IMG/VR virus record: IMGVR_UViG_3300043394_000085
Location: 1 to 34,027 of that record
Source: a virus
Lineage: Duplodnaviria; Caudoviricetes
DNA: 34,027 bases
Strand: one strand, 5' to 3'
Below are positions 2,037-28,478 of the stretch, piece by piece. A program made the position numbers and the translations under genes. The notes under the pieces were generated by a model, which saw nothing but the letters and a program-made list of their open reading frames with translations, did no database searches and was not told the origin of the DNA. Numbering within the stretch: position 1 is the stretch's first letter; each line of letters starts with the position of its first letter.

Positions 2037-2735
2037 TCAGGCTCCCAGCAGGGTCTTCACCTGGGTTTCATCAGTCGTCACACCTGGCAGACCCAACTCA
2101 GGGTTAACCCTAGCTGTGGACAACAGCGAGCGGCGACCGGCACGGCGGCGAGCCGTCATCTGTGCGGACTCACGCTCTGCGATCTTGCGGCGCTCGGCGT
2201 CCAGGGACGCAGCCTGGTCTTTGGCCTGCTTCTCCATGCTGGCTTTCTGCTCTTCGTACTGCTTTTGCTGCTGGAAGAGCTGGGCCTTGGCGGCTTCCGC
2301 GGCTGCTGCTTGCTGGGCGGTCAAACCCTTCATCATTTCCGCTTGCTGAGAGGCTGTCAGTTGAGCGGCAGACAAGGCAGAAGCAGCAGCTTCACGCTGG
2401 GCTGCGATCTGGGCTGCGGTCAGCTCACCATTCTTGGCGGCTAGGGCGGCTTGCTGCTCACGGGTGAGCTTTGCCTGGTCGGCAGCGGAAGCACGGGCCT
2501 TCTCGGCTTCGGCAGCAGCAGCGTCGCGGCTCAGTTGAGCCTGGGTTGCAGCGGTTTCGCGGGCGGCTGCGGCTTGCGCTGCGGCTTCCTCACGCGCTTT
2601 TGTGGCGTTTGCAATGGCTGCGGCTGCAGCGTCCGACGCTTGGGCTCGGGCTTTGTCCGCGGCGCTTTGAGAACGGTTCACAGCGTAGGCCGTGGCTCCC
2701 GCTCCGATCAAAGCTGCGACGATTGGTGCTGGCAT
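2037..2735 (-). CDS. Ala/Gln-rich putative virion protein (hydrophobic N-terminus, coiled coil)
   Basis: 232-aa ORF. N-terminus MPAPIVAALIGAGATAYAV; C-terminus RRRAGRRSLLS...TLLGA, similar to the neighbouring gene. Confidence 0.75.
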   Translation of the reverse strand: MPAPIVAALIGAGATAYAVNRSQSAADKARAQASDAAAAAIANATKAREEAAAQAAAARETAATQAQLSRDAAAAEAEKARASAADQAKLTREQQAALAAKNGELTAAQIAAQREAAASALSAAQLTASQQAEMMKGLTAQQAAAAEAAKAQLFQQQKQYEEQKASMEKQAKDQAASLDAERRKIAERESAQMTARRRAGRRSLLSTARVNPELGLPGVTTDETQVKTLLGA

Positions 2736-3214
2736 GGTCTGATCCTTCCATAGAGTGTGTAGTCAGAGCCGTCCATCCCGAACTTTTGCATCACACCCTC
2801 AAGCGTGAAACCCAGGGCCAGTGGCCAGCTCCTTGAATATTCTGCATTCGATTCTATTGCTACTTGTACACGGGTCAAAGCCAGCGATATCTGAGCGATA
2901 TCCAATGCAGTCCTCACACCGACCACCAGCTGGCGCTTGAATTGGCTCTTCACGCTGTCGTCAATGATCGTCCACACCTCTCCGACACCCTTCCACAGCA
3001 CTGCGATGCCGATGATCCCCAGCAGCTTGCCGTTGTAGTAGAGGGCACCGCTCGGGCCGCGCTCCATGTTGAAGTGAATGGTGTCCAGAGGGTCGATTGG
3101 CCAGGGCGTCCTGACGTATTGGGCCAGGCGCTGGATGTGCCAGTCAGTGATTGGCTCAAAGTAGATGCCGGTGCAGGCCAGCTTCTCGTTGACGGTGTCG
3201 ATCAGGTCGGTCAT
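2708..3214 (-). CDS. GNAT-fold putative acetyltransferase (T7 gp13-like family)
   Basis: Start re-set to MTDLID, an ATGA overlap with the terminase stop. Motifs GKLLGIIGI..LWKGVGEVW and LGFTLEGVMQKFGMDGSDY are typical of GNAT C-termini. Confidence 0.75.
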   Translation of the reverse strand: MTDLIDTVNEKLACTGIYFEPITDWHIQRLAQYVRTPWPIDPLDTIHFNMERGPSGALYYNGKLLGIIGIAVLWKGVGEVWTIIDDSVKSQFKRQLVVGVRTALDIAQISLALTRVQVAIESNAEYSRSWPLALGFTLEGVMQKFGMDGSDYTLYGRIRPCQHQSSQL

Positions 3215-4764
3215 GAGAAAATATCGAAGTCGAGTGAGGCCGTAGTCATGCCAGGTGCGCGGCCACCCAGCTGCGGAGTGCGAGTCATGCGGTTGTATTC
3301 GCCACCGCCCAGCATCAGGTACCCGAATGAGTCGCCAATGTGACTGTGTTCGTTCTTGTTGGGGGCGTCTTTGAAGCGTTCGTGGCCAGCACCGACCGCG
3401 ACACGCTTGAAGTGGTAGCCACCGCCAAGCGCTTTGCGCAGCAGCTTGCATTCGCGGTTGACAATGAGCCCTGGCTTGCCCGAAACCAGGCGCTGCATGG
3501 GAGCAGCTGACGCCTCGCGCCGCACCTTGAAGTCATTCGACGCTGTCGGCTGGGCCTTGAGCCCCAATGTCCGCAGAAAGTCGAAGGCAGTGACCTCATA
3601 AATGGCGTCCCTGGCCATACCGGCAGGGTCACCCCAGATCATCACCTGGTGGTTTGGATAGCGAGCGTTTAATTCTGTCAGCAGCTGCAGGCCAAAGCGC
3701 TCCAGGCCCATGTCAAACGTGACGATTTCCTGGTGAATTTGCCACTGGCCGTTGGGCATACGCTGGCCAATGGTGGCCGCCGGTGTCAAACCAAAGTCCA
3801 AACCGATCTGAATGGGCACATTGGGGTGCACTTCAGTGTCGCCGGACATGGTCGCATCGTTATATTCTGGCCAGACTGGTCTGCCTTCCTGGACATAAAC
3901 GTATTCCCCACCCGCATAGCAGCGGATCCAGTCGAGCGTCTTGCCGCCCAGCATCTGTAGGTAGTAACCAGGCGGCAGGTTGTTCAAGTTCTCGGCCTTG
4001 GGATTGATCTTCCACCACTTATTGGCCGCAAAGATGTGGTCATTGGCCTCTGGCATTTCAGGCAGATCTTCAGAGTCGACCGGAACCACGCCACCAGGCT
4101 GCTTGTAGAACTTCCAGGCAAACTGGCCAGTGAGCTTTTCCTTCTCAGCCAGCTTGAACCACCAGTGATCATCATCCATCGGGTTGGTGTCCATCCAGAT
4201 CCCCGACCAAGTAGCCCCGCCATCGCGCTTGGTAGGGTAGCGGCCAACACGGTGAGTCAATCCATCGATCACAGCCTTTGGCAGCTCGCGTGCTTCATTG
4301 ACCCAAGCCCCAGTCAGCTCAAGCGAGAGGAGTTTCCTCACGTCTTTAGGCTGGTCAAGGGCCAGGAAGATGACCTCGCAGTCAATCCCCGCCGCATCAC
4401 CCCGGCTTGGCAGTTTGATGTGATGGGTGATCGGAGGCGTCCACAGCATAGGGCCAAACGTAGACTCAGGAAACAGATCCAGCCACGTCTTAATCGTTGT
4501 GGTCTTCAGCATGGGGTAGCTGTTTCGCACAATGGCAAACCGCGAGTATCGGATGCCGTCAATCGGCGATGGCTTTTGTTTGACAGCACGCATCATGATC
4601 TCTGCTGCGCACGCATATGACTTGCCAGACCCCACCGGCCCCATCATTCCACGCACGAATGCGTTGGACTGCAGAAACTGCCAGACAGCAGGCGACTTGC
4701 TGAAGTCCAGGTTCAAGCCAGTCGAAGGCATTGCCTTCTCAGATTGCTCTTTAGTTCGGCTCAT
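3211..4764 (-). CDS. terL: Terminase large subunit
   Basis: Walker A GPVGSGKS, Walker B AWVNEARE, coupling motif DTNP, nuclease motifs GLDFGLTPAA and HSHIGDSFGY. Confidence 0.95.
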   Translation of the reverse strand: MSRTKEQSEKAMPSTGLNLDFSKSPAVWQFLQSNAFVRGMMGPVGSGKSYACAAEIMMRAVKQKPSPIDGIRYSRFAIVRNSYPMLKTTTIKTWLDLFPESTFGPMLWTPPITHHIKLPSRGDAAGIDCEVIFLALDQPKDVRKLLSLELTGAWVNEARELPKAVIDGLTHRVGRYPTKRDGGATWSGIWMDTNPMDDDHWWFKLAEKEKLTGQFAWKFYKQPGGVVPVDSEDLPEMPEANDHIFAANKWWKINPKAENLNNLPPGYYLQMLGGKTLDWIRCYAGGEYVYVQEGRPVWPEYNDATMSGDTEVHPNVPIQIGLDFGLTPAATIGQRMPNGQWQIHQEIVTFDMGLERFGLQLLTELNARYPNHQVMIWGDPAGMARDAIYEVTAFDFLRTLGLKAQPTASNDFKVRREASAAPMQRLVSGKPGLIVNRECKLLRKALGGGYHFKRVAVGAGHERFKDAPNKNEHSHIGDSFGYLMLGGGEYNRMTRTPQLGGRAPGMTTASLDFDIFS

Positions 4765-9328: not shown

Positions 9329-9523
9329 ATGACACCCACAGCAAAGAAGATTCACGACATTGAGTTGCAGATTGCTCGCATTGAGCACAACTCAGCCAAC
9401 TACATTGGCGGCGACAAAGCCTACTACTCTGGCAACCAGACTTTTTTGAAGCCTGCAGCACAGCGCAAAGTTGACTCTCTCAACAAACAGCTGGACGCAT
9501 TGCTTGACAGCGTGGAGGCTTGA
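9329..9523 (+). CDS. Hypothetical early protein (64 aa)
   Basis: Strong RBS AAGGAG; first ORF after the rightward promoter. Confidence 0.75.
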   Translation: MTPTAKKIHDIELQIARIEHNSANYIGGDKAYYSGNQTFLKPAAQRKVDSLNKQLDALLDSVEA

Positions 9524-9525
9524 TC

Positions 9526-10176
9526 ATGACCAAGTTTGTCGCATACTTCCGAGTCTCTACAGATCGCCAGGGCCAGTCAGGTCTTGGCCTGGATGCACAG
9601 CGCCAAGCTGTTGCGCAGCACGTCGGTGACCAGGAGCTGGTTGCTGAGTTCACAGAGGTCGAGTCTGGTCGCAAGACAGATCGTGTGCAGCTGGCTCAGG
9701 CCATGAGCCTTGCCAAGCGTACAAAGTCTGTCCTGGTGATCGCCAAACTTGATCGCCTGGCACGTAATGTCCACTTTATCTCCGGCCTGCTTGAGTCAGG
9801 CGTTCCATTCGTTTGCGCTGACATGCCAGAAGCTGACCGCACCTTCTTGCAAATGTCTGCTGTGTTTGCTGAGTGGGAAGCACGCAAGATCAGCGAGCGC
9901 ACTAAGGCTGCCCTGGCACAAGCCAAGGCCCGTGGCACACGCCTGGGCTGCCCTACCCCTGCAGCTGGCAGCGCAGCTGGTGTGGCAAGCATCAAGACCA
10001 AGGCAGACGCATACGCTGCACGCATGTTGCCCATGGTGCGCGACATCCAGGCACGCATGGCCACTGCCACACTTCGAGACATTGCTGCCGAGCTCACAGC
10101 TCGCGGCATTGAGACCGCCAGGGGCGGCAATACCTGGCACGCAAGCCAGGTTTCCAACTTGCTCGCAAGAGCTTAA
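9526..10176 (+). CDS. Serine recombinase (resolvase/invertase catalytic domain plus C-terminal helical DNA-binding domain)
   Basis: YFRVSTDRQ (catalytic Ser), ESG, AKLDRLARN, ISERTKAALAQAKARG..LG; C-terminal TLRDIAAELTARGI.T.RGG.W. RBS GGAGG. Confidence 0.93.
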   Translation: MTKFVAYFRVSTDRQGQSGLGLDAQRQAVAQHVGDQELVAEFTEVESGRKTDRVQLAQAMSLAKRTKSVLVIAKLDRLARNVHFISGLLESGVPFVCADMPEADRTFLQMSAVFAEWEARKISERTKAALAQAKARGTRLGCPTPAAGSAAGVASIKTKADAYAARMLPMVRDIQARMATATLRDIAAELTARGIETARGGNTWHASQVSNLLARA

Positions 10177-15489: not shown

Positions 15490-15695
15490 TCCTGTTCATC
15501 AGCTTTAGCCGATGCCCTAGCAATTTTCAAGTGTTGATGCTTGAAGTAGATGTTAACCAACAAGCCACACAAAGCAATGACAACACCAGACACAGCAGCA
15601 AACTCATTAGCTGTTAAACCAAAGATGACTGCTGCACTAGAGCCACCATAAGTAGCTGCTGATGCTATTTTTGTTGATACTGCTTCGTTTGTCAT
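15486..15695 (-). CDS. Holin (HP1/phage 21-like small holin)
   Basis: ASAATYGGS.AAVIFGLT.NEFAA..GVVIAL.GLLVNIYFK, followed by a charged C-terminus. Confidence 0.8.
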   Translation of the reverse strand: MTNEAVSTKIASAATYGGSSAAVIFGLTANEFAAVSGVVIALCGLLVNIYFKHQHLKIARASAKADEQE

Positions 15696-16189
15696 GGCTT
15701 CTCAGGATATGTAATAGTCCAAGGGAAACCTTCTTGCGCTGTAACATCACGCAAGGCTTGACGATATGTAGCCCATACTGTCTTATCAACAGGAGCATCA
15801 TCTACTTGTGTCCAGTCACACTCAGCTAACTTCTCATCACGAGTAGCACGAACACTCTTAGCCTGTTCAGCATCTTTAATAGCTTTGTAAGCGGCTTCTT
15901 GTTCAGCAGCAGTAGTAGTTACACCATCTACCACTTGGTCTAAGAAGACAGGGCCTAAGATGTACTTTGTATACCACTTACCATCTACTTGCTCAACACC
16001 AGAGGCTTGAGAGTATTGGTAAACAGTACCACCTGTAGCTTGTGGGCCTTCAAAGACTACATCAGCACCCAAAGCCTCTAAGACTTCAGTTGTTGTTGTC
16101 TCCCATGATGGGCCACCATTGGCTTTGATGTGTGTACGAAATTCTGCTTCGTACATTACTGCCCCTGTTTCTCTGATTCTGATTTGCAT
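15692..16189 (-). CDS. Tail fibre assembly chaperone-like protein
   Basis: C-terminal R..RD.KLAECDWTQ..DAP....WATYRQALRD.T.Q.GFP....P.KP. Confidence 0.85.
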   Translation of the reverse strand: MQIRIRETGAVMYEAEFRTHIKANGGPSWETTTTEVLEALGADVVFEGPQATGGTVYQYSQASGVEQVDGKWYTKYILGPVFLDQVVDGVTTTAAEQEAAYKAIKDAEQAKSVRATRDEKLAECDWTQVDDAPVDKTVWATYRQALRDVTAQEGFPWTITYPEKP

Positions 16190-16198
16190 GATGTTCCT

Positions 16199-16360
16199 TT
16201 ATGTTTTTACAGCATCAATAATTTTCTGTGTTATTTCTAAGAATAACTTTTGTTCATCTTCTACATCACCAAACTGACCTTCAATTAGATGTGAGTCAAA
16301 GACATCAAACAACGTAGAATTCCCATCTAGTTCCATGTTTAGTAGTTCTTGTGCTGTCAT
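16199..16360 (-). CDS. Small acidic hypothetical protein (53 aa)
   Basis: Hand translation MTAQELLNMELDGNSTLFDVFDSHLIEGQFGDVEDEQKLFLEITQKIIDAVKT; RBS AAGGA. Confidence 0.65.
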   Translation of the reverse strand: MTAQELLNMELDGNSTLFDVFDSHLIEGQFGDVEDEQKLFLEITQKIIDAVKT

Positions 16361-16368
16361 GATTTTCC

Positions 16369-18309
16369 TTACGCTATGGCAAAGAAAATGAATGTTCCAC
16401 CACTTGCATTGATGGCTGCTGGCGCTGTTGAACTAATCTCAAACCCTGCGCTGTATGTGTCAATGTAATCTGTAGTTGTTACTTCAGCGGCTGTGCTGTT
16501 CAAAAGCAAGTAAGGGTCATTGCCACTCACAATGCCTCGTGCTGAATCCCATACATACCAAGCTCCACCTAAATCTGTTCTTTTTATGAGAACAAACCTT
16601 GCGCCACTAGTAAATCCACAATCAACTTGCAGTGTTGTACCTGTGCCTGTATAGCTCCCAACCTTACTTACACCTGCACAAGTGGCAAACAAATAGGCGA
16701 CATAAGTGTTGCCAGAAGCATTTGTCTCAGTAATCGGGCTAAGACCAAAAGTAGTGCTAGTTGGGTCTGTTGTTCCCCAAGAATTTCCAACATCTGATGC
16801 AAAGCTATCGGTTAAATTTAAGAAAGCATAGTAGTTTCGACCATAGGTTGCGCTATAAACAAACCAAACACTAGTTGAGCTTCTACGCTTTACAAAAATT
16901 AGTTCTGGTACTGCTTGTAAACCATGCGTTTGCGTTCTTGTTGTACTTGTTCCGTCATAGCAAACCTCATCAAAGAAGCTAGGGGCACGTCTGAACATAT
17001 ATCCAAGAAGCGATGAAAGGGTGCTTGTCGAGTTATATGCGCCATTCATGTAATCAAATGTGAAATAACCATTTGATGCTTCTGCGGTTGTTGAGTTAGA
17101 TGCTAAATAAACATTTCCTCTGAGGCGGTCACCCCAATTTCTAACTCCACCAGAACCTCTGCCAAGTGCCAAATTTAAGTCAACAGGAAAACTAGACCTA
17201 AATCCTGGTAGTTGACCATCTGCTGTACTACCAAGGGTATCAACAGCAAACACCTTAGTCGCATCCGTAGGCACTTTCATCGGGCCTCTACGAATGGCTA
17301 TGTAGATGTAAGTGTCACCACTTCCTGATGCTGCATCGTTTGCAAATCCAGTAGCAGTTGGATACCAATTACCTCCAGAAGATAATTCAGCACCACTAGT
17401 GTTTGCTCTAAGAAGTGCATCTAAACCAGCTACTGTCATCCCTCGCATTGTGTCTATAAGCCACCAATCTTCTGCAACAGAAGCATTTTTAACCAACAAC
17501 CATTGAGGTTCATAACCAAGATTCACAGCATTTGCGCCTGTAGTCTCAACATAAGACCCACACGAAATCACATTGTCTGTACCAGTCAGACCAAAGCCTC
17601 CTGCGTTGTGGGCGAATAGGTAGGCTACGTAAGTGCCGCCGTTGGTGTTTCCGATGTTGGTATCTTTATCTTGAATCCATTGAGGATAAAAGACAGTATC
17701 AGTTCCAATGTAGCTGTTAGGCAACGTTTGGAAGCTAGCGGCAGTTGAATTCAGCGAGATTGCACCCGCACCTGCTGTTGAGCTTGTGCGAATCCAACCA
17801 CCCCAGTTGCTTGCCGCATCTGTGCGTTTAACAAAAATTGCACCCGGAAAAGACTTAAGGTTGTGCGCAACCGCTTGGCCAGAAGTACCATCACCCGTAT
17901 AAGTCACAACATCAAAGAACTTTGGAGTTTTTGCAAAAGACCAACTTGTGTAGGTTTGACCATTTGCATTTAATTGATTATTACCCGTTAAATCAAATCC
18001 AGTTGTGTTAAATGCTGTTACACCACCAGTCGGGATATTAGTTAATGCGTCAGTAAGATTTGAGATTAAAGAATATGAAGTTCCAGTCGTAGGAGAAGAA
18101 AGCCAATGGTTGTATGCGGCTGACCTTGATTTAATCCAAACCAATCCACCATTTGTAGATAAATCAACACCATTGACGATGGTTTTGTCTGTGCCGTTGC
18201 CTGTGTAGAGGTATGTGCTGAAACATGACTCTATATAGTTTGGCTCAACAGCAACCCCGCCACCGTACGCATCGGCTGTCACATTACCTGATGTTTGCTG
18301 AAGTGGCAT
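16369..18309 (-). CDS. Putative receptor-binding/tail-fibre-associated protein with tandem YTG-type beta modules
   Basis: 646 aa with about five repeats of Y(T/D)G...G..P..(V/I)K.R....W...N.T.A...TY(V/I)AY.F(A); lies between the tail fibre and its chaperone. Confidence 0.75.
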   Translation of the reverse strand: MPLQQTSGNVTADAYGGGVAVEPNYIESCFSTYLYTGNGTDKTIVNGVDLSTNGGLVWIKSRSAAYNHWLSSPTTGTSYSLISNLTDALTNIPTGGVTAFNTTGFDLTGNNQLNANGQTYTSWSFAKTPKFFDVVTYTGDGTSGQAVAHNLKSFPGAIFVKRTDAASNWGGWIRTSSTAGAGAISLNSTAASFQTLPNSYIGTDTVFYPQWIQDKDTNIGNTNGGTYVAYLFAHNAGGFGLTGTDNVISCGSYVETTGANAVNLGYEPQWLLVKNASVAEDWWLIDTMRGMTVAGLDALLRANTSGAELSSGGNWYPTATGFANDAASGSGDTYIYIAIRRGPMKVPTDATKVFAVDTLGSTADGQLPGFRSSFPVDLNLALGRGSGGVRNWGDRLRGNVYLASNSTTAEASNGYFTFDYMNGAYNSTSTLSSLLGYMFRRAPSFFDEVCYDGTSTTRTQTHGLQAVPELIFVKRRSSTSVWFVYSATYGRNYYAFLNLTDSFASDVGNSWGTTDPTSTTFGLSPITETNASGNTYVAYLFATCAGVSKVGSYTGTGTTLQVDCGFTSGARFVLIKRTDLGGAWYVWDSARGIVSGNDPYLLLNSTAAEVTTTDYIDTYSAGFEISSTAPAAINASGGTFIFFAIA

Positions 18310-18311
18310 TA

Positions 18312-18986
18312 TTATTCCTTGTCTTTACAATTATCAAAATGCCAACGCTTTGCAACATTGACAGCGATAGATTTTTGGCAATGAGGGCAATCAACTTTAG
18401 GTTTTGGCAGACCTTTTCGTAACGCACTCATTTTAGCTTTTGCTTCTTCGGTTTGTTTGCGACCCTTCATTGGGCTTGGACGACCTAACAATGCCTCTGA
18501 AGTCTTGCGTTTTGTTTCTTCTGAAGGACGATATGTAGATTCTTTTTGTGCTTTTGCCATGTTTGCTTTTGCAATTTCTGACCTTGGCTTGCGCATCTTT
18601 TGTTTCGTTTCTTCAGAAACAATGCGACCTTTAAACAATTGAGTTACATATTTTTTATGTTCTTCAGTATGTTTGTAGCCTTTAGCACCATCACCACCAT
18701 CTGTCATATTGGTCAATGGTATGCCAATATTACGCATTTCAGCAATTAGCAAACACTCAAAGTCAATGGCTTGAGCGTCAGAAACATTTTCTTCAACTTT
18801 TGTAATAACGGGCTTCATGCCAAGTGCCATCAATTTGCGAATCTTGTTTAGCTTTTTTGATTTGCGCTTGGTGTAATACTTGGCCTCATCCAAATGAAAT
18901 TCGCAACGCTTACCATGCCCTTTACCAACGTAAAAAGGCATCCCATTTCTGGGGTCAGTCAACGTGTAAACGTATGCGTTATCCAT
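18312..18986 (-). CDS. Free-standing GIY-YIG-type homing endonuclease with NUMOD3-like repeats
   Basis: YVYTLTDPRN..PFYVGKG..R, E..LI, LTN.TDGGDG; repeats HTEEHK/SEETKQKM/SEETKRK.S/TEEAKAKMS; C-terminal CPHC...WHFDNC. Confidence 0.88.
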   Translation of the reverse strand: MDNAYVYTLTDPRNGMPFYVGKGHGKRCEFHLDEAKYYTKRKSKKLNKIRKLMALGMKPVITKVEENVSDAQAIDFECLLIAEMRNIGIPLTNMTDGGDGAKGYKHTEEHKKYVTQLFKGRIVSEETKQKMRKPRSEIAKANMAKAQKESTYRPSEETKRKTSEALLGRPSPMKGRKQTEEAKAKMSALRKGLPKPKVDCPHCQKSIAVNVAKRWHFDNCKDKE

Positions 18987-20935: not shown

Positions 20936-23797
20936 TTACGGTTTGTAATAGAGGCCATTGGCCTTGCGAAGCTCTTGCAGCTCAGCGATCCGAGCCTGCA
21001 GCGCAGGGTCTTCTTGCTTGAGCTGGCTTTGTGCTGCCTGCATATATTTGCTGTGCACAGACTGAACGGTCTTTTGCTGGTCATCCAATGACAGCAGGGT
21101 AAACCCTGGCGACAGCATGACATCCATAATGCCCTGCTTTGATGGCAGCTCCTTGCCGTAGATTGTCAACAAGCGGTTGTACTGCTCAGCTGTCATTTCA
21201 ACGCCATCGACCTTTTTGTCTGGCATGCCGACTGGTGAACCAATGCGCACCAGGGCGTCGTCAACCAGGCTGAATTGCGCAGGGCTGACACGGGTTGGCA
21301 GCACCAGCTCCATGGGGTTGCCACGCGAAGTCAGGACTGGGTCGCCCCAAAGGTTGAGCGCCTCTGGCAGATCTGAATTGAAGTATGGCAGGCGTGACTT
21401 GTACTTGTTGAATGCCTCGACAAAGCCGCGCACCCCCATGGGCAGCTCGGGGTCTGCGCGTGTGTCTTTCCTGGTTGGGTCTGACAAGCGAGCAATGCCA
21501 GCCACTAATGAGCTGTAAGCGCCAGCTGGTGAGCCACCAATTGCAAAGCCACCAAACTGCTTGACCAGGCCGTCGACAATCTTCTTGCCGTCAACAGCGC
21601 CCTGCTGGTTTGTGCCAATCAGTTTGGCCACATCAGCCACGCCCTGGAGATAAGGCTGCTCTTTGAGGTACTCATACAAGCCATAGGTAGCGCCCAGGAA
21701 AACCTCTTCAACTTTGCTGGCGTCTGGCTCATGCTTGGCATATTCAGCATAGTCGGCAGCAATGGCCATCAATGCTGAGACCGGCTCCATGCCGTTGTAG
21801 CTGTAGTATGCGTCGCCAACCTTGATTGAGTAAGGCATCCAGCCGTCGCGCATGAGCGCTTCACGGTCTGCCTTGCGTTCTGGGCCACGGCCGGTGATGT
21901 TGCCCTCGGCTGACAGTGCAGCAAACGTGGCCAGCAAGGCTGAACCCAGGGTAACCTTGGCCAAAGCCATGTCGCGGTAGATGCCGCCCTTGGCAACCTC
22001 TTCACGCCACATCGAGGACAGCGGTGCAAACGGTGTGCGCTCGACCAGCTGAATGCCAATGTTGGCAGGCGTCTTGAAAAATGGCACGACAACCTTGAGT
22101 GCAGGGTGATTGAACACCTCTTGCAAATTTTTCAATGCTGGTGGCAGCTCAGAAGTGAACGTGCCTTTTTGGGCATAAGCCATGGCTGCTTCATCCAGGT
22201 CGCGGGGTGGCGACTGAAACAAGCTCTCAATTTCAAGCGAAGCCTTGGCCATTGCGTCAGTCTCTGACAAGCCAGCGTCGACACCTTCACGGTAGACGGT
22301 CTTGCCACGGCGAGTGATCAGAGTATTCAGCTCCATGCGGTAGAGCACACCTTTGAAAAATTCATCCTCGGTCATCAATGCGCGGCCAGGAATAGTGACG
22401 GCCGTGCCGTAGAAGTCCAAAGCCTTGGCCATCCATGTGTCTTGCTCAAGACCAAACGCGCCTGAGCTGATCGATGGAGTCATATTGCCACGCTGCATTT
22501 CGAGCTTGGTTACCAAGTCGCTGGGAGCGTTGTTCTTCCAGGCAGTGCTGGCCAGCTGCATGCCCTCGACAATGCCATTGCGCAGCGACTGCACCATGGT
22601 CAAAGCCTCATCCATGCCGACCTTCTCAGCCTCAGATCCTGGAATCAGCGACTTCCAGCTGCGCACGCCGGTTGGCAGCACGTTGCCGTACATGGCCGCG
22701 ACCATACGCTCTGGGATCTGATACAGGCCAAACAGGCTGTTGGACACCACGTTCTTTGCGTGTGACACAGGCGATGACAGCAGGCCGTTAATGTAGGTTG
22801 TGAACCAGACATCCTTGACACCAGACATCATCGACTTCTCGATCATGGCATTCTGAGCAGCGCGTGACTCCAAGGACAAATAACTGCGCGCCATGTCCTG
22901 CAAAGCAGCATCGCCGCCAAACTCTTCAAGCACCTGGCGAATGACATCAGCGCTGCCGTCGCGTGGAATGCGGAACACTGCCAAGGCTCGGGCTGTCTCA
23001 GTTTGAATGCCCTTCACGCCCTTTTGGATCAAACCATGGAAAGCCACTTGCTGGCGAAGCATGAGCTTGTCAGCATCGGTGGCCATGCCAGAGTTGACCA
23101 GCTTGAACAACTTGTCGAGCTCGTTGGCGCTGGTCTCTAAAACCTCCAGGGCTTTGTAAGTCTCGACAGCGTTGGCCATCATCCGGCCATCGCTACCAAT
23201 CAGGCGCGTCAGGAATGACTCACCAATGCCAGACTCAGCAGCCTTGGCTTTGATCTCATCAAACGTCACAGCCTTGGTCTTGATGTTCAAGGCATCGGCC
23301 ACACCGGCCACAATGCCAGCAGCGTCGTGGTTTTGGTATTGAGACAGATTGAACGGCTCGACCTTGACACCGGCAGCCAGCTCTTCTGTGGTCGGGCTTG
23401 GTTTACCAACCAAAGCGCCCTGAGCCTGGCGACGGCTCACAGCCTGGCCGACAGTTTCTGTCATTGCCGGACTGGCTTCTGGAATGACTTTAAAGCGGCC
23501 AGCTTTTGCCGCATCAGACAGCTCTGTGTCCAGGATCTTGCCAGGCACAAGCTGACGCTCAGCCTTGGCTGCCTGGCGTGTGATCAATTGGCGAATGGCT
23601 GCATCAGCTGGGCCAGCGACCTGGATGCCTTCAGACATGCTAGGCGTGCCAGGCTGGTCTGTGACCGTCTCAGCGACTGGGGCTGCCGCTGCCTCAGCAG
23701 GCATTGGCTCAAGTTTGGTTGGATCTGCTGGCGCTGCAGCTGGTGAAGCTGCTGGCAAGATGCTGTTGAGGCGTTGATCGAGTGGTTGAATGGCCAT
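20936..23797 (-). CDS. Large internal virion (ejection) protein, ~953 aa
   Basis: Position before the tail fibre; motifs VPFFKTPANI, GNITGRGP, GWMPYSIKVGD..YSY...EP resemble large podovirus core proteins. TGATG coupling to the upstream gene. Confidence 0.8.
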   Translation of the reverse strand: MAIQPLDQRLNSILPAASPAAAPADPTKLEPMPAEAAAAPVAETVTDQPGTPSMSEGIQVAGPADAAIRQLITRQAAKAERQLVPGKILDTELSDAAKAGRFKVIPEASPAMTETVGQAVSRRQAQGALVGKPSPTTEELAAGVKVEPFNLSQYQNHDAAGIVAGVADALNIKTKAVTFDEIKAKAAESGIGESFLTRLIGSDGRMMANAVETYKALEVLETSANELDKLFKLVNSGMATDADKLMLRQQVAFHGLIQKGVKGIQTETARALAVFRIPRDGSADVIRQVLEEFGGDAALQDMARSYLSLESRAAQNAMIEKSMMSGVKDVWFTTYINGLLSSPVSHAKNVVSNSLFGLYQIPERMVAAMYGNVLPTGVRSWKSLIPGSEAEKVGMDEALTMVQSLRNGIVEGMQLASTAWKNNAPSDLVTKLEMQRGNMTPSISSGAFGLEQDTWMAKALDFYGTAVTIPGRALMTEDEFFKGVLYRMELNTLITRRGKTVYREGVDAGLSETDAMAKASLEIESLFQSPPRDLDEAAMAYAQKGTFTSELPPALKNLQEVFNHPALKVVVPFFKTPANIGIQLVERTPFAPLSSMWREEVAKGGIYRDMALAKVTLGSALLATFAALSAEGNITGRGPERKADREALMRDGWMPYSIKVGDAYYSYNGMEPVSALMAIAADYAEYAKHEPDASKVEEVFLGATYGLYEYLKEQPYLQGVADVAKLIGTNQQGAVDGKKIVDGLVKQFGGFAIGGSPAGAYSSLVAGIARLSDPTRKDTRADPELPMGVRGFVEAFNKYKSRLPYFNSDLPEALNLWGDPVLTSRGNPMELVLPTRVSPAQFSLVDDALVRIGSPVGMPDKKVDGVEMTAEQYNRLLTIYGKELPSKQGIMDVMLSPGFTLLSLDDQQKTVQSVHSKYMQAAQSQLKQEDPALQARIAELQELRKANGLYYKP

Positions 23798-25818
23798 CAC
23801 TTAGCTCCAGAAGTGCGAGCCTGACGGCCACGCTTTACGCTTGACGAATCTCCTGTGGCAGCTCCACTTCGTTCTCCGCCCCCCATTCCGTTGGCAGACC
23901 CTCCGGGTACGCCAGCCCCAGGTAGTTGTCCCTGGTTAATGGAAGGTTGAACTTCTGGAGCAGCTCCAGGACGTAGTCCGGCCCGCTCCCACTCTGGGGC
24001 GTTGATTCCGCCTGCTGCATTGAAGACTTCATTGCGTGCCTCGTCTTGTGAGAGTTTGCCTTTGCGATATTGTAGCCAAATGTTGTCTACCTTGTCAGCA
24101 TTTGCTGCTGTTTTGAATGTATCAGGGAACAGGCCGCGAACAGCCTCCCAGGTAATGGATTGCATCTCACGGGGTAAGACGCCACGCTCTTGAGCTGCAC
24201 GTCGGTACGCTTCAGCATAGATTCCATATGTGCCTTTTACGCCAGTGACAGAGCTGTTCTTTGGGCCACCTTCACCGGTAATGCCAGAGCCAAAGTTGTG
24301 CAAAACCTCACGGCTATTGCCAGACAGTGGTCGCAGCAAGCCAGCAGCCACCGCATGGGTGTCGATGGTCACAGCGCCAGATGGGTCATTGGGCGCGTAG
24401 ATGTTGTTGTAGAAGTTGCGAACCTTGTGCATGTCGCCCAGGTTCTTGCTGATGTTCGCTTTTGATGGGTCATCCAAAATGACGATGGCTTTGCCGATCT
24501 CATTGAGCGAACCCCAGCCGGTCTTGGTTGGAGTCTTGCCGTCAGCATTCATGCGCAGGCCAGCAAAGTCACCCTCTGGAGTAACGATCTGGTGCTCGCG
24601 TGGCAAGTACGCCTGGTCATATGTGCGCAGCCACATGGCTTTCAAACCTGGATCTGTAATCTCTGCCAGGGTTTTGCCTTTGATCGCGTCAACCATTGGC
24701 GCGTATTGTGGCTTTGACCAAATGACTTTGGCCATTTCGGTCATTGCGTCATCCCATTTGGCGGTCTGTTTTCCCGTCATGATGTCAAGCACTCGCTGGC
24801 CAAGAGACACATTCATGAACCAATCTTTTTGTGGCGATAGAACGGCCAGCACGCCAGACACTGCCTGGTCAGGAACCTGGTACTCATTCGACCATTTGCT
24901 GGTGATGTTGCGCGCACCGTCATACCAAAGTTTGCTGCGCTGGCGCGTAGCTTCCGGAACCTGGTCATGCAAGAACAACAAGTTGTCTTTGACTTCTGTG
25001 ATGAAGTCTTCGGCCTGCTTGTCTGGGCTGCGTGCTTTTGACGCAAAATTTGGATACTGTTTAATCAGTCCGACGTTGTAATTAAATGCTTCTGGATCTG
25101 TCTTTGCCGATTGCAAATCGATCACCAGATTGTTGGCCAATGGGTCTTCTGTGGCTTTGACAGCGGTTGGCAGTCGAGTACTCACCACATTGGGGCCAGA
25201 CTGCACAATGCCTAAACCACGCGCAGGCATGCCGGTTTTTTCCAGCGCGTTGATTGTCATCTCGGCTGCTTTTGGTATCAGAGGCTTAGCAGCTGTGACC
25301 GTGCCTGCCACACCTGGTATTAAGCCTATTGCAGCTCCGCCAGCCTGCAATGCAGCTGTGCCGTAGTTGCCCTGCTGCACTGATGTCACAGCCTCTTCAC
25401 CCATGCGCACAGCTTCTTGCGTCTGCAAACCAGTACCCAGGAAGGGCACAACGTCCGCTAGGCCCATGTTTAAGGGTAGGTTGCTACTAGGGCCACCCAA
25501 AAGCGTTTGAGCGTTTTGACGGGCTTTATAGCGATCCACACCCATGCCCTCAAAGCCAGCTTGTAAAAAACTGGCCAGGCGCTCACGCACAGTCGGGTCA
25601 TAGGCAGTTGCCTGCGCTGGTTTTTGTCCACTGTAAGCAAAGTCGGGTAAACCCCTAGAACCAACTTCGGCAACCAGGATGTCACCAGGTCGTTGACCAG
25701 GAGCCATGGCTTGCTGTGGTTCCGCAGCTGGTGCAGGCGCAGTCTCGACCGGCTCTGTAGGAAACTGGATCGCTGTCAATGCTGACAAGTATTTATTTTC
25801 GACCGGGCTGTAGGCCAT
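23797..25818 (-). CDS. Putative internal virion protein with pre-toxin-like hydrophobic segment and C-terminal HhH-GPD DNA-glycosylase-like domain
   Basis: Within the ejection cluster. LADVVPFLGT...GNYGTAALQAGGAAIGLIPGVAG, then WY..AR...VLAVLSPQ..W..NV, HKVRNFY..I...VTIDTHA, Y...AEAYR.AA...LPREMQSITW. The CDS is secure; the domain call is by motif resemblance. Confidence 0.7.
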   Translation of the reverse strand: MAYSPVENKYLSALTAIQFPTEPVETAPAPAAEPQQAMAPGQRPGDILVAEVGSRGLPDFAYSGQKPAQATAYDPTVRERLASFLQAGFEGMGVDRYKARQNAQTLLGGPSSNLPLNMGLADVVPFLGTGLQTQEAVRMGEEAVTSVQQGNYGTAALQAGGAAIGLIPGVAGTVTAAKPLIPKAAEMTINALEKTGMPARGLGIVQSGPNVVSTRLPTAVKATEDPLANNLVIDLQSAKTDPEAFNYNVGLIKQYPNFASKARSPDKQAEDFITEVKDNLLFLHDQVPEATRQRSKLWYDGARNITSKWSNEYQVPDQAVSGVLAVLSPQKDWFMNVSLGQRVLDIMTGKQTAKWDDAMTEMAKVIWSKPQYAPMVDAIKGKTLAEITDPGLKAMWLRTYDQAYLPREHQIVTPEGDFAGLRMNADGKTPTKTGWGSLNEIGKAIVILDDPSKANISKNLGDMHKVRNFYNNIYAPNDPSGAVTIDTHAVAAGLLRPLSGNSREVLHNFGSGITGEGGPKNSSVTGVKGTYGIYAEAYRRAAQERGVLPREMQSITWEAVRGLFPDTFKTAANADKVDNIWLQYRKGKLSQDEARNEVFNAAGGINAPEWERAGLRPGAAPEVQPSINQGQLPGAGVPGGSANGMGGGERSGAATGDSSSVKRGRQARTSGAK
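23835..24032 (-). CDS. Nested out-of-frame small acidic protein (65 aa)
   Basis: RBS GAGG 6 nt before the ATG. Globular-looking DYVLELLQKFNLPLTRDNYLGLAYPEGLP.EW.AE.E.ELP, while the host frame here becomes Gly/Ala/Pro low complexity. Confidence 0.6.
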   Translation of the reverse strand: MKSSMQQAESTPQSGSGPDYVLELLQKFNLPLTRDNYLGLAYPEGLPTEWGAENEVELPQEIRQA

Positions 25819-27554
25819 TACTGATTCCCTTCTGCCTGGTCGAGCAGGCGCTTGATTTGTGTGATCTCAGCCGGCTTGAGCTTCTTGCTGTTCTCCAAAG
25901 CGGGCAGGGTGTCGCGGGTGATCGGGCCACCGGCCTTCTTCTCCCAGACAGTGGTCAGCGAGGTGCGGGCAGCCTTGGCCTGCTCTGTGTTGCGGGTGGC
26001 TTCCAGGTTCTTGGACACCTGCTCAAGCACCTGGCGGGGCTGGAGAATCTCACCCTTCGCGGTGGCTGCAGACTGCACTGCCAGAGCGTCTGCGCGCAGC
26101 TTCTGCAGGCGCTGGAACTCTGCGCCCTTGGGGTCAAGCACAGTCACTGAGCCAGGCATCGTCGGAATGCCAGCCAGTCTGGCCAGGCCAGTGTCCAGGT
26201 CGCGTTGGTCGCGGCGGTCTTCGCTGGTCAGCAGTCTGAGTGCGGCGACCTTCTGCTTGCCGTTGAGCGAGCCATTCTTGAAAATCTGGTCAGGGTTGGT
26301 GATCGTGCCTTCGTAGATGCCGCGGATCACATTGAACTCAGCGGTGGGGTTGCCCTCTGTGTTGGGCTGCAGCAAGTCCTTGAGGACACTCAGCGGCACA
26401 GCGTCTGGCGTCTTCTGAGCGATGACAGCGATCTGGCTTGTGAGCTGCTTGCGGGCCTGGCTGCCCTCTGGCGCAGCGATGGCCTTCTCATACAGGGGCA
26501 CGAACTCCAGGACGGCTGCACGCTTGTCGGCTTCGCGCTTCTGATTGAGCGCAGTGTTGCGAGCGTTGACGGCCACCATGTAGTTGGCCGACACCTTCTC
26601 AATGGAAGCGTAGTCGGTCATCAGCATGCCTTTGACCAGGTCGGACATTCGGCCCACGTTGCCGGTCTGGATGTTCTTGAGCGTTGCCTCGGGGTCAGCG
26701 ATGGCAGCCTCATCAGTGATCAGGAACTTGGTGACGGCGTTGATCTTGGCTCCCTTCAGAGCCGCCTCAAACTTGTCGCTGTACTGCTTCTGCACCTGGG
26801 CGTCGCCAAGCAGCAGGGCGCTGGTGGTGATCGACTGGCGGTACACGTCGGCCAGCTCTTCGATGCTGCGCTTCTGCTGGGTCTTGGGGTCAACCCAGAA
26901 ACCCTGCGACACCGCGGCTTCAAGCAAGCGGGTGCTGTTGTCAAAGTCAGCATCGAACTTGGCCAGGCGCTGGGCCTTCTCGCGCTTCATCTCAAATTCG
27001 GCAGCCTTGGCCAGCACTGTGTTGCCCATGGTGGCTGTGGTTGCGCGGAACTTGAGCGACGCCTCGGGGTCAACTTGCGCCAGGCTGCGGCTGAAGCCGT
27101 CCATCATCGATGTCAGCTTGCCTTGCACCTGCTCGGTGGTCGCCTTGCCAGACTCGACAGCCGTCAGCATGCCGGTCATCTGTGTGCGAGCCTCGGCCTC
27201 AAAGTTGCTGGACAGCTCAAAGGAGCGAGCCTTGCGCACAGCCTGGTCGAACACATTGAGCGAGCCACCCAGCTTCATCGCCTGGACATCGCCCATCTTT
27301 GCAGCCTGCAGCTGCTCTTCGGTCAGCGGGTTGTCGGCAGCGTACTGGTAGCCGGCATCGGCAGCCGCGGTCTTGGCAATGCCGAAGAGCTGGTTGCTGA
27401 TGCGGTCGAGCGTCTGAGCCACGGTCTGAGCGTTGGCAGCGCCAGCTCGCAGGCCGACATAGTCAACCTGGGGAGCGTTGACGGTTGGCAGCACCGCGCC
27501 AGGAATGCCTGCCGCTTCTACACGGCCAGATTGGAGGAGTGGTAGGTCTGCCAT
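25818..27554 (-). CDS. Internal virion (ejection) protein, 578 aa, helical
   Basis: Second gene after tail tube B; Ala/Gln/Lys-rich helical composition; TAATG coupling to the next gene. Confidence 0.75.
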   Translation of the reverse strand: MADLPLLQSGRVEAAGIPGAVLPTVNAPQVDYVGLRAGAANAQTVAQTLDRISNQLFGIAKTAAADAGYQYAADNPLTEEQLQAAKMGDVQAMKLGGSLNVFDQAVRKARSFELSSNFEAEARTQMTGMLTAVESGKATTEQVQGKLTSMMDGFSRSLAQVDPEASLKFRATTATMGNTVLAKAAEFEMKREKAQRLAKFDADFDNSTRLLEAAVSQGFWVDPKTQQKRSIEELADVYRQSITTSALLLGDAQVQKQYSDKFEAALKGAKINAVTKFLITDEAAIADPEATLKNIQTGNVGRMSDLVKGMLMTDYASIEKVSANYMVAVNARNTALNQKREADKRAAVLEFVPLYEKAIAAPEGSQARKQLTSQIAVIAQKTPDAVPLSVLKDLLQPNTEGNPTAEFNVIRGIYEGTITNPDQIFKNGSLNGKQKVAALRLLTSEDRRDQRDLDTGLARLAGIPTMPGSVTVLDPKGAEFQRLQKLRADALAVQSAATAKGEILQPRQVLEQVSKNLEATRNTEQAKAARTSLTTVWEKKAGGPITRDTLPALENSKKLKPAEITQIKRLLDQAEGNQ

Positions 27555-27557
27555 GTT

Positions 27558-28478
27558 TTAAGGTGTGAATGGGTTGCGAACAGTCTGAGCGAAGTTCAGA
27601 CCTCCCTGCAGTAGCGTGGCGTTCGACAGCAAGCCGCCGCTGTCCACAGCGAACTGACCGGCCAGGCGCATCTGGCTGGCCTGCGCTTCGGCTCCGGCCA
27701 TCGTCAGCTCGGCCTGCTCCTTGGCTGCCAGGATCATCGCGCCTGCGTCTTCAAAGCCCAGGATGCGAGCCGTCAGCGCATTCAGATCGGACATGCCGAC
27801 ATCGCGGTAGGTCGCGCCCACGTTGGCCGCTTGCACGGCAGCAGAAGAGCCTTCGTTGTAGACGATGCCGTTGGCAGCAGCACGGGCACGCACGGCAGCG
27901 TTTGACCGCTCCATGGTGCGCAGCAGGCTGTTGCCTTGAATGGTGTAGTTCAGTGCCTGGCGCTCGGCCGACAGCAGCTTGCGACCGGCCTGGATGGATG
28001 CGTACTTCTGATCCTGGTCAGTGCGAATCTGTGCCAGGCGCAGCGTGTCAAGAGCCTGCACTTCGTACAGACCCTGTTGGTAGATGGCCGCAGTCTTCTG
28101 CGCACCAGCACTGGTGATGGCCGAAGCCAGCTGCAGATACGGGGCCGCAGCATTGATGCCGGTCTGCAACCCGGTGAAGGCAGAGCCTGCAACCTCGCCA
28201 GCCGCAGTCAGGAACTTGCTGCCCGATGCGATGATGCTGGCCCAGTCATAGCCGCCCGACGTGTCAACGCCAGACAGCAGGCTGTAGTCATAGCTGCCGA
28301 TCTGATAGGCAGACGGATTGCTGAACGATGCAACGCTCAGACCCAGGCCATCAGTCGCGCTGAACCCAGTGTTCAAGTTATAGCTGACGTTGCTCGCGTC
28401 GAAGCCAAGGCCCGACGGCGCAGACCAGCCACCAGCAAGACTGAAGTCCACTCCAGAAAAGTTAAGTCCATCTCCCAT
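27558..28478 (-). CDS. Internal virion protein (T7 gp14-like position) with Gly/Ser/aromatic N-terminal extension
   Basis: Follows tail tube B; RARAAANGI..NEGS motif and Ala/Gln-rich C-terminal half. Confidence 0.75.
   Translation of the reverse strand: MGDGLNFSGVDFSLAGGWSAPSGLGFDASNVSYNLNTGFSATDGLGLSVASFSNPSAYQIGSYDYSLLSGVDTSGGYDWASIIASGSKFLTAAGEVAGSAFTGLQTGINAAAPYLQLASAITSAGAQKTAAIYQQGLYEVQALDTLRLAQIRTDQDQKYASIQAGRKLLSAERQALNYTIQGNSLLRTMERSNAAVRARAAANGIVYNEGSSAAVQAANVGATYRDVGMSDLNALTARILGFEDAGAMILAAKEQAELTMAGAEAQASQMRLAGQFAVDSGGLLSNATLLQGGLNFAQTVRNPFTP

Follow-up and report, generated by a model that had tools for sequence, protein, structure and literature searches.

The window analyzed here is the whole of a 34,027-bp virus record (IMGVR_UViG_3300043394_000085), complete with direct terminal repeats, and the virus is a small tailed phage, a podophage. 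Its minus strand encodes, at positions 23797 to 25818, a 673-amino-acid (aa) protein that we call the slot protein, composed of a leader, a stalk, a linker, an exchangeable tip of the family DUF7178, and a low-complexity tail, as delineated by its open reading frame (ORF) and Pfam. The tip is predicted to have the fold of helix-hairpin-helix (HhH)-GPD DNA glycosylases, and close relatives carry other tips on the same stalk. The reading that we prefer, held tentatively when the whole chain of steps is taken together, is that the slot protein is an ejected guanine-type glycosylase/apurinic-apyrimidinic (AP) lyase directed against modified guanine in non-self DNA. The original prediction had described a virion-delivered effector with a pretoxin-like hairpin and a DNA glycosylase-like domain. 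Its observation is confirmed, with the gene on the minus strand, and its interpretation is partly supported. The observation goes beyond chance because of the DUF7178 match (E = 2.5e-26), motif residues that are invariant in 151 of 151 aligned domains, and the HhH fold.

Residues ~210 to 612 (start approximate; 23983 to 25191, minus strand like all coordinates of the slot gene) match DUF7178 (PF23802) in Pfam with 93.2 bits against a gathering cutoff of 27. A phmmer search with the tip found homologues in 2734 clusters at 50% identity, 1635 of them at E ≤ 1e-30, and the module was matched near full length in the best 150. K465, D486, and the Q553-x3-W557 motif are invariant in all aligned domains, and H488 is also listed as invariant. 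Invariant or near-invariant positions include W298, Y299, S328-P-Q330, D332, W333, and N336 in a WY.G ... SPQ.DW..N block of the N-terminal lobe (aa 298 to 336; 24811 to 24927); G461, K465, R467, F469, N472, D486, T487, and H488, in a segment that runs from a helix through the G461 hairpin, the K465 helix, and a loop to D486-T-H488 (aa 453 to 489; 24352 to 24462); and Q553, W557, E558, R561, and W610. The motifs quoted in the original prediction are all present (LADVVPFLGT at 120 to 129, GNYGTAALQAGGAAIGLIPGVAG at 150 to 172, HKVRNFYNNIYAPNDPSGAVTIDTHA at 464 to 489, and MQSITW at 552 to 557), as is the noted spacing of 21 between K465 and D486.

The company that the domain keeps points to phage virions. 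Among the best 150 homologues, 62 are proteins of >1500 aa, and 14 of the 17 giants scanned from these 62 also have LPD22, LPD38, ART-PolyVal, InPase, or SLT domains; therefore, DUF7178 belongs to the polyvalent-protein pool. The cultured Roseobacter phage CRP-738 has the domain in gp40, two genes after the portal, and another cultured phage, Rhodobacteraceae phage LS06-2018-MD07, has it in a giant protein that follows an internal virion gene. In cellular genomes the domain is rare: a single scan, which covered 185,579 species, gave 40 loci, mostly on short contigs. One cellular locus, in Jannaschia seohaensis (L037:4999-9665), has a DUF7178 gene after a 1018-aa protein with giant-protein PHROG matches and with an integrase nearby. 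The 150 distant homologues include one fusion of the tip to the stalk found here and none to the 954-aa or 578-aa protein encoded beside the slot gene. The slot protein had no match in PADLOC or NCBIfam. A literature search that left most subscription journals outside its reach found neither DUF7178 nor an injected glycosylase as the subject of a paper, and a search pairing polyvalent proteins with glycosylases returned only the review PMC7824862, whose available text uses the terms in an unrelated way.

The tip was modeled with AlphaFold2 from 75 sequences (predicted local distance difference test [pLDDT] score, 94.7; predicted template modeling [pTM] score, 0.92). The model was compared with known structures by a wide aligner, for which 50 matches were shown, and separately by Foldseek against the PDB. 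The first 22 matches of the wide aligner are all HhH-superfamily enzymes, and the first unrelated match has a Z score of 4.2. The best match is the Ogg2 enzyme Tm1821 (3N0U; Z = 9.8, root mean square deviation [RMSD] of 3.9, 189 residues aligned), followed by QNG1 (Z = 9.0, RMSD of 4.7, 225 aligned), Qng1 (Z = 8.7, RMSD of 4.5, 222 aligned), and AGOG (Z = 7.6, RMSD of 5.0, 204 aligned) and then by MagIII, EndoIII, ROS1, OGG1, and MutY. Matches of the HhH-GPD, AGOG, and DUF7178 kinds had been expected in the original prediction, and all of these were found, AGOG being among the first 22. It had drawn its comparison with EndoIII; the guanine-specific enzymes Ogg2, Qng1, and AGOG are structurally nearer.

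In the model, the HhH-GPD fold is borne out with the Lys and Asp at canonical secondary-structure positions. The hairpin helices span model residues 239 to 246 and 250 to 260, K251 (K465 of the protein) opens the second helix after the G461 hairpin, and D272 (D486) caps helix 273 to 280; judged from the fold match, both side chains would face one cleft. In characterized enzymes, the order Lys, Asp(-x-His), (D/Q)-x3-(W/F) serves catalysis and guanine-ring binding (PMC3397491; PMC9881137; bioRxiv 10.1101/2025.10.29.685425). The reported sets are K249/D268/H270/Q315/F319 in hOGG1 and, with the same functions, D194/W198 in Ogg2 and K140/D172/D218/W222 in AGOG (PMC3397491); K199/D231/D298/W302 in Qng1, which acts on a nucleotide (PMC9881137); and K118/D132/D184/W188 in Dag1 (bioRxiv 10.1101/2025.10.29.685425). 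The Ogg2 and Ogg1 proteins compared here have the same residue order. From this order and the secondary structure, we infer that K465/D486/H488/Q553/W557 are equivalent to the characterized set. The Q553-x3-W557 motif (24148 to 24162) is the predicted counterpart, by motif order, of the guanine-binding pairs Q315/F319 of hOGG1, D194/W198 of Ogg2, D298/W302 of Qng1, and D184/W188 of Dag1.

The hidden Markov model (HMM) of the Ogg2 family (PF22175) had no match in the genome, and its control matched in 3; the AGOG HMM (PF09171) also had no match, yet its control matched nowhere. Alignment of the tip by hhalign was not significant with EndoIII (E = 0.045) or with weak AGOG-like sets (E = 0.029), the templates comprising 1 to 6 sequences, and sequence searches of the PDB with the slot protein, its profile, and a protein with another tip (class 3, below) gave nothing relevant. 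The amino acid:DNA transferase (AADT) group of base-modifying HhH enzymes, represented by PaMx11 gp46, aligned with the class-3 tip at a Z of 4.7 (RMSD of 5.3, 206 aligned) and was not among the 50 matches shown for the DUF7178 tip, which does not exclude AADT. A general scan of the ORFs, not aimed at the 5-hydroxymethyldeoxyuridine pathway, turned up none of its genes.

The original prediction that the C-terminal tip is swappable was borne out by ten tip classes on the same stalk and by exchange boundaries at the DNA level. A search with the stalk (aa 65 to 205) returned 430 proteins; among the 120 listed, 69 have this tip and the other 51 are divided among nine further classes, many of these 51 at 85 to 96% stalk identity. 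The 205 sequences with the stalk whose tips were clustered came from protein databases and from 34 IMG/VR loci, and two of them were too short to class; class 0, the DUF7178 tip, is inflated in this set, as its members were also gathered with the whole protein. Five classes are HhH-like, one is PBECR5 (class 2; E = 1e-23), one is ART-PolyVal (class 8; E = 2e-24 to 2e-22), two more are ART-like (class 6 weakly ART-PolyVal and class 9 by eye only), and one is an unnamed EEVQSDW domain that matches part of the giant PHROG 7348 (class 4). Tips of the class 4 type (P0127, P0146, P0148, and P0152) have HIR..DR and EEVQSDWHQ motifs and look nuclease-like by eye.

All five HhH-like classes keep the K, the D, and a (Q/H)-x3-W motif in the representatives checked. 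By profile, class 1 is linked to class 0 (E = 6e-5) and, weakly, to Ogg1 (E = 0.003), and class 7 is linked to class 1 (E = 2e-6). Class 5 had no profile link to class 0 and resembles DUF7178 clusters in Atlas (0.95; 200 of 256 features), in which 22 to 47% of members carry the family. Class 3 had no detectable sequence link to class 0 (profile E = 0.16 to 0.45), and its model (pLDDT, 91.7) superimposes on Tm1821 with a Z of 14.9 (RMSD of 3.2, 207 of 209 residues aligned), Ogg2 being preferred by >5 Z units, and it has a canonical GVGIDNK hairpin. The class-3 tip (L006:8520-9800) ends in a small beta domain (model residues 373 to 427) that is weakly PC4/PUR-like (Z = 4.1 to 4.2). Members of class 1 (P0132 and P0149) and class 5 (P0122 and P0160) have an extra C-terminal domain within their C-terminal 300 to 400 aa; it had no convincing Pfam match, and P0132 and P0122 had none in PHROG or NCBIfam.

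The position of the gene is constant. In 34 of 34 IMG/VR loci, it adjoins an orthologue of the 578-aa gene, the 954-aa gene, or both. At the DNA level, relatives with other tips cease to be similar at codon ~204 to 209 and become similar again at codon 664 to 674. Locus L026 shares aa 1 to 64 and aa 175 to 205 and is 95.6% identical in DNA from the start codon of the 954-aa gene onward, and it has another stalk and a PBECR5-class tip between the shared parts. Stalks are exchanged too, as the 55 N termini compared fall into four clusters. The likely route of the swap is homologous recombination, for which the leader, the linker, and the gene that follows would provide the shared sequence, and the phage encodes YqaJ/RecT. 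The slot leaves no room for an immunity gene, since the 954-aa gene begins −4 to +2 nucleotides from the end of the slot gene in 29 of the 30 loci that have both genes. The exception, L020 (L020:4861-6003), is broken or split: its class-1 slot ORF ends after 380 aa, and 1.6 kb separate it from the 954-aa orthologue. With no immunity gene behind it, the slot protein falls outside the classical polymorphic toxins, to which the original prediction had likened it. Among cultured phages, the nearest relative found is Methylophilales phage MEP301 (MW452941; capsid protein identity of 74%). It has the same gene order as the window phage, but its slot (L224:8134-8619) holds gp25, a protein of 161 aa without cargo. 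This suggests that the cargo is accessory. The similarity of gp25 to the stalks tested is not significant (E = 0.04 to 0.3), and it is a positional equivalent only.

Within the slot protein, an acidic, Pro-rich leader (aa 1 to 64; 25627 to 25818), common even to L026 and L028, which have another stalk and tip, precedes the stalk (aa 65 to 175; 25294 to 25626), one of several alternatives, with two hydrophobic motifs of the D..P..G / G..PG type. A linker ending in GLGIV (aa 176 to 209; 25192 to 25293), where DNA similarity to other-tip relatives ends, is the likely crossover point, and a Gly/Ser-rich tail with a basic end (aa 613 to 673; 23797 to 23982) follows the tip; similar tails close several other tip classes. 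A plus-strand reading of 23797 to 25818 was ruled out, as that strand has no open frame there. The D..P..G and G..PG motifs are conserved. For the segment containing them, which had been described as Gly rich and hydrophobic, the Gly-rich motifs stand, and the hydrophobicity proved moderate (best 19-residue Kyte-Doolittle mean, 1.42). Kinship with PT-TG (PF14449) was rejected: the stalk has no Pfam match to it, 0 of 5 relatives matched at E ≤ 10, and one PT-TG protein compared with the stalk profile gave 1.7 bits, the first D..PG motif being the only one that falls into register. The stalk is like a precargo hairpin by position, and its relation to PT-TG is one of resemblance. Its Atlas neighbors, at scores that below 0.9 serve as leads only, are the P22 gp16 ejection domain (0.84), PT-TG (0.84), MafB (0.81), and LPD22 (0.78). 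Pfam shows no MuF domain in the slot protein.

The slot gene overlaps each neighbor by one base of start and stop codon (TAATG on the 578-aa side and TGATG on the 954-aa side), and translational coupling to both is plausible from this arrangement. Downstream, its stop overlaps the start of the gene for a 954-aa internal virion protein of the T7 gp16/'D'-like kind (20936 to 23797, minus strand), whose matches are PHROG 6651 ('internal virion protein'; E = 1e-33) and the proteins called 'internal virion protein D' in pelagi-, roseo-, and cyanophages. Upstream, its start overlaps the stop of the gene for a 578-aa protein (25818 to 27554, minus strand) that is labeled a probable ejection protein by position alone, because searches of Pfam, PHROG, and NCBIfam gave no convincing match. 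The placement between two coupled internal virion genes thus holds for the overlaps and the downstream gene, with the upstream label given by position only. The assignment to an ejection cluster is supported by these neighbor matches and by the gene order of relatives.

In the mechanism that we propose, the slot protein would be an accessory of the DNA-ejection cluster with an exchangeable tip, and the tip, a predicted guanine-type DNA glycosylase/AP lyase, would likely be packed in the head and ejected with the genome. Packaging and ejection are suggested by the slot, the coupling, and the partner domains, including those of cultured phages, and the leader and stalk very probably load the protein on the inner core and carry it through the ejection channel. 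K465 and D486 are probably catalytic, with Q553 and W557 reading and stacking the guanine ring. Within minutes of the start of infection, the tip would excise modified guanines, of which marks of the 7-deazaguanine type are the likeliest. The target would be a mark absent from the phage's own DNA and present in the host chromosome or in an element that is resident or coinfecting. Excision and nicking would disable the marked DNA, as Dag1 does from the host side; selectivity for the mark would make an immunity gene unnecessary, and the divergent glycosylase clades would correspond to different marks. Altered guanine is favored as the substrate because, without an immunity protein, attack on plain guanine would destroy the phage's own genome and because no TGT or QueC family gene was found in the complete genome (positive controls matched). 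A non-self mark is favored because the other slot occupants are conflict enzymes, because five glycosylase clades share the slot, and because Dag1, an HhH enzyme, provides a precedent: it degrades 7-deazaguanine DNA and spares unmodified DNA (bioRxiv 10.1101/2025.10.29.685425).

Several results weigh against this reading. The Z of 9.8 lies under the caution line of ~13 for helical folds, and since it is modest, the assignment depends on the unanimity of the match list and the motif order. Foldseek of the tip model against the PDB gave no match at E ≤ 0.001, with AGOG at rank 5, and hhalign against the shallow templates of Ogg2 (E = 0.76) and Ogg1 (E = 0.28) was not significant. The hairpin is noncanonical, G461-x-x-H464-K465 with variable positions 462 and 463 instead of G-h-G-x-K; the hairpin of AGOG is likewise noncanonical (PMC3397491). 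Short DUF7178-like proteins of ~200 aa, with no room for a stalk, exist. A lack of TGT and QueC is expected for most phages and carries little weight alone, and the K/D/(D,Q)xxxW set also serves 8-oxoguanine (8-oxoG) and queuosine-nucleotide enzymes and therefore does not fix the substrate. Finally, 7-deazaguanine DNA is a minority trait and the tip is very common, which points to a more universal target. Readings in which the tip repairs DNA, acts like Qng1, or removes adducts therefore keep some probability.

The main rival among these, though rather unlikely, is coejected repair: an 8-oxoG/formamidopyrimidine-guanine glycosylase-lyase would clear oxidative damage of the virion DNA before replication, and the slot would be a general cargo bay. 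An 8-oxoG glycosylase is the top fold match of both modeled tips, oxidized guanine is a universal substrate that fits the abundance of the domain, and repair needs no immunity gene. Hosts usually have their own MutM, and the exchange of the tip with ART and RNase-type domains, like the presence of five clades in one slot, would suit conflict better. The C terminus bears on the question from both sides. The aligned range ends by the invariant W610 (model residue 396 against Tm1821 residue 206), close to the C-terminal site where a Lys carboxylate sensor sets the 8-oxoG specificity of Ogg2 (PMC3397491). That sensor is the terminal carboxylate, however, and it is absent from the tip, whose chain runs on for 63 aa past W610; 34 of the 150 homologues end ≤3 residues from W610, and 102 go >10 aa beyond it.

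An improbable alternative is a Qng1-like N-glycosidase that acts on RNA or free nucleotides, removing queuine from host tRNA or Q nucleotides or destroying a guanine-containing immune signal. QNG1/DUF2419 ties with Ogg2 as a fold match (Z of 9.0 versus 9.8) over more aligned residues, the K/D and D-x3-W set recurs in Qng1, whose substrate is a nucleotide (PMC9881137), the second Gly of HhH motifs that bind DNA is missing from the tip hairpin, and PBECR5, a predicted RNase, also occupies the slot. The class-3 tip, however, points to DNA by its canonical GVGIDNK hairpin, its Ogg2 preference, and its weakly PC4/PUR-like end, and tRNA damage would harm a phage that depends on host translation. Quite improbable is counterdefense on the phage's own DNA, in which the tip would excise a host-installed guanine adduct (e.g., ADP-ribosylated or alkylated) and host repair would restore the genome. 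Early delivery and tip turnover would fit a response to varied host defenses (Iyer et al. 2017, PMC5512222), with no need for an immunity gene, but N2-linked adducts would be expected to clash with a pocket in which Q553 reads N1/N2 (cf. PMC3397491), the tip has no PADLOC match, and the gene context gives no sign of such a role. Equally hard to credit is a protein that is not ejected or is no enzyme (a late cytoplasmic protein or a structural, DNA-binding part of the core with a dead glycosylase fold). In its favor, no family matches the stalk, which is found on 1 of 150 distant homologues. Against it, none of the 151 aligned domains departs from the catalytic-type residues, the virion genes to either side overlap the slot gene, giants with LPD38/SLT include the domain, and cultured phages have it two genes past the portal or in a giant after an internal virion gene.

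Compared with known systems, the slot protein resembles polyvalent proteins in lying among virion genes and in being predicted to be injected, and the two draw on a common pool, with ART-PolyVal and PBECR5 in the slot of relatives and LPD22, LPD38, InPase, and SLT in the giant homologues (Iyer et al. 2017, PMC5512222); unlike them, it has one domain recognizable by Pfam, one cargo swapped allele by allele. Like the MuF polymorphic toxins of temperate phages, as described in the available text of PMC12226406, it joins a conserved N terminus to a variable C-terminal enzyme in a virion-gene cluster, but it has no MuF domain and no downstream immunity genes and lies in a T7-like-core ejection cluster rather than among head genes. 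T4 Alt, per PMC5512222, is likewise an enzyme packaged in the head and injected with DNA, but it is an R-S-E ADP-ribosyltransferase without a modular swapped tip. Among glycosylases, the tip model would have in common with Ogg2, AGOG, and OGG1 (Tm1821, 3N0U; Pa-AGOG, 1XQP; hOGG1) the HhH two-lobe fold, the second-helix Lys, the Asp-x-His, and the order of the (D/Q)-x3-(W/F) motif; it differs in its size (about twice theirs), its G-x-x-H-K hairpin, and its K-D spacing of 21, and, unlike Ogg2 and OGG1, it has no terminal-Lys sensor, OGG1 A-domain, or PF22175 match. Qng1/QNG1 (DUF2419; PMC9881137) ties for the best fold match, with the same K, D, and (D/Q)-x3-W for a guanine-type ring, but is 6 to 7% identical, and the tip has no Pfam match to that family and a virion context. 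By its published residues, Dag1/Dag2 (bioRxiv 10.1101/2025.10.29.685425) shares the HhH fold, K, D, and D-x3-W (Q553 for D in the tip); Dag1 and Dag2 are mobile, diversified conflict enzymes selective for modified guanine and host encoded in integrons, whereas the tip is phage encoded and probably virion borne.

Elsewhere, the genome encodes T7-like virion proteins (portal, scaffold, capsid protein, adaptor, and nozzle), a terminase, a replication initiator, YqaJ/RecT, and a GH19 endolysin. Beyond the 578-aa gene lies a gene for a 306-aa probable small internal virion protein (27558 to 28478, minus strand; weak PHROG 418 match, E = 0.006). In MEP301, the orthologue of the 954-aa protein is annotated as two genes, gp24 and gp23 (L224:5032-8131). 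An AT-rich block at 15692 to 18986 (GC of 0.40 to 0.44 versus ~0.56), in which relatives differ, encodes a DUF7483 tail protein and, inserted between tail genes, a homing-type endonuclease (GIY-YIG/NUMOD3). At 9520 to 10176 is a short serine resolvase with a Recombinase match below threshold, whose MEP301 equivalent was judged possibly nonfunctional as an integrase (PMC8024684). The ORF after the terminase (2708 to 3451) matches PHROG 4177 (function unknown), and its C-terminal part is GNAT acetyltransferase-like by eye. The nozzle occurs in ~658-aa and ~734-aa forms among otherwise close relatives (L005, L008, L011 to L015, and L019).

The slot protein is a variation on virion effectors of the polyvalent and MuF types, and injected polyvalent proteins are known as a prediction (PMC5512222). 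A broader proposal, possible but doubtful, is that MEP301-like podophages carry an ejectosome 'warhead slot' in which at least five diverged glycosylases of the OGG/Qng1 fold alternate with ADP-ribosyltransferases and RNases, each glycosylase clade reading another guanine mark. The injected enzyme would then be a modification-dependent restriction glycosylase aimed at the DNA of the host or of rival phages. Such a slot would be the phage-side mirror of Dag/Brig defense, the phage's own DNA being unmarked and hence in no need of an immunity protein. DUF7178, a widespread family that is unnamed in the papers found, gains a predicted fold, a predicted active site, and a delivery context. Base excision would join the predicted chemistries that phages inject; it is not in the main text of PMC5512222, where the word "glycosylase" occurs 0 times. 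Near-identical phages that differ only in the tip form a natural allelic series of the slot, which makes the role of polyvalent and ejected cargo domains testable and may yield new modification-specific enzymes.

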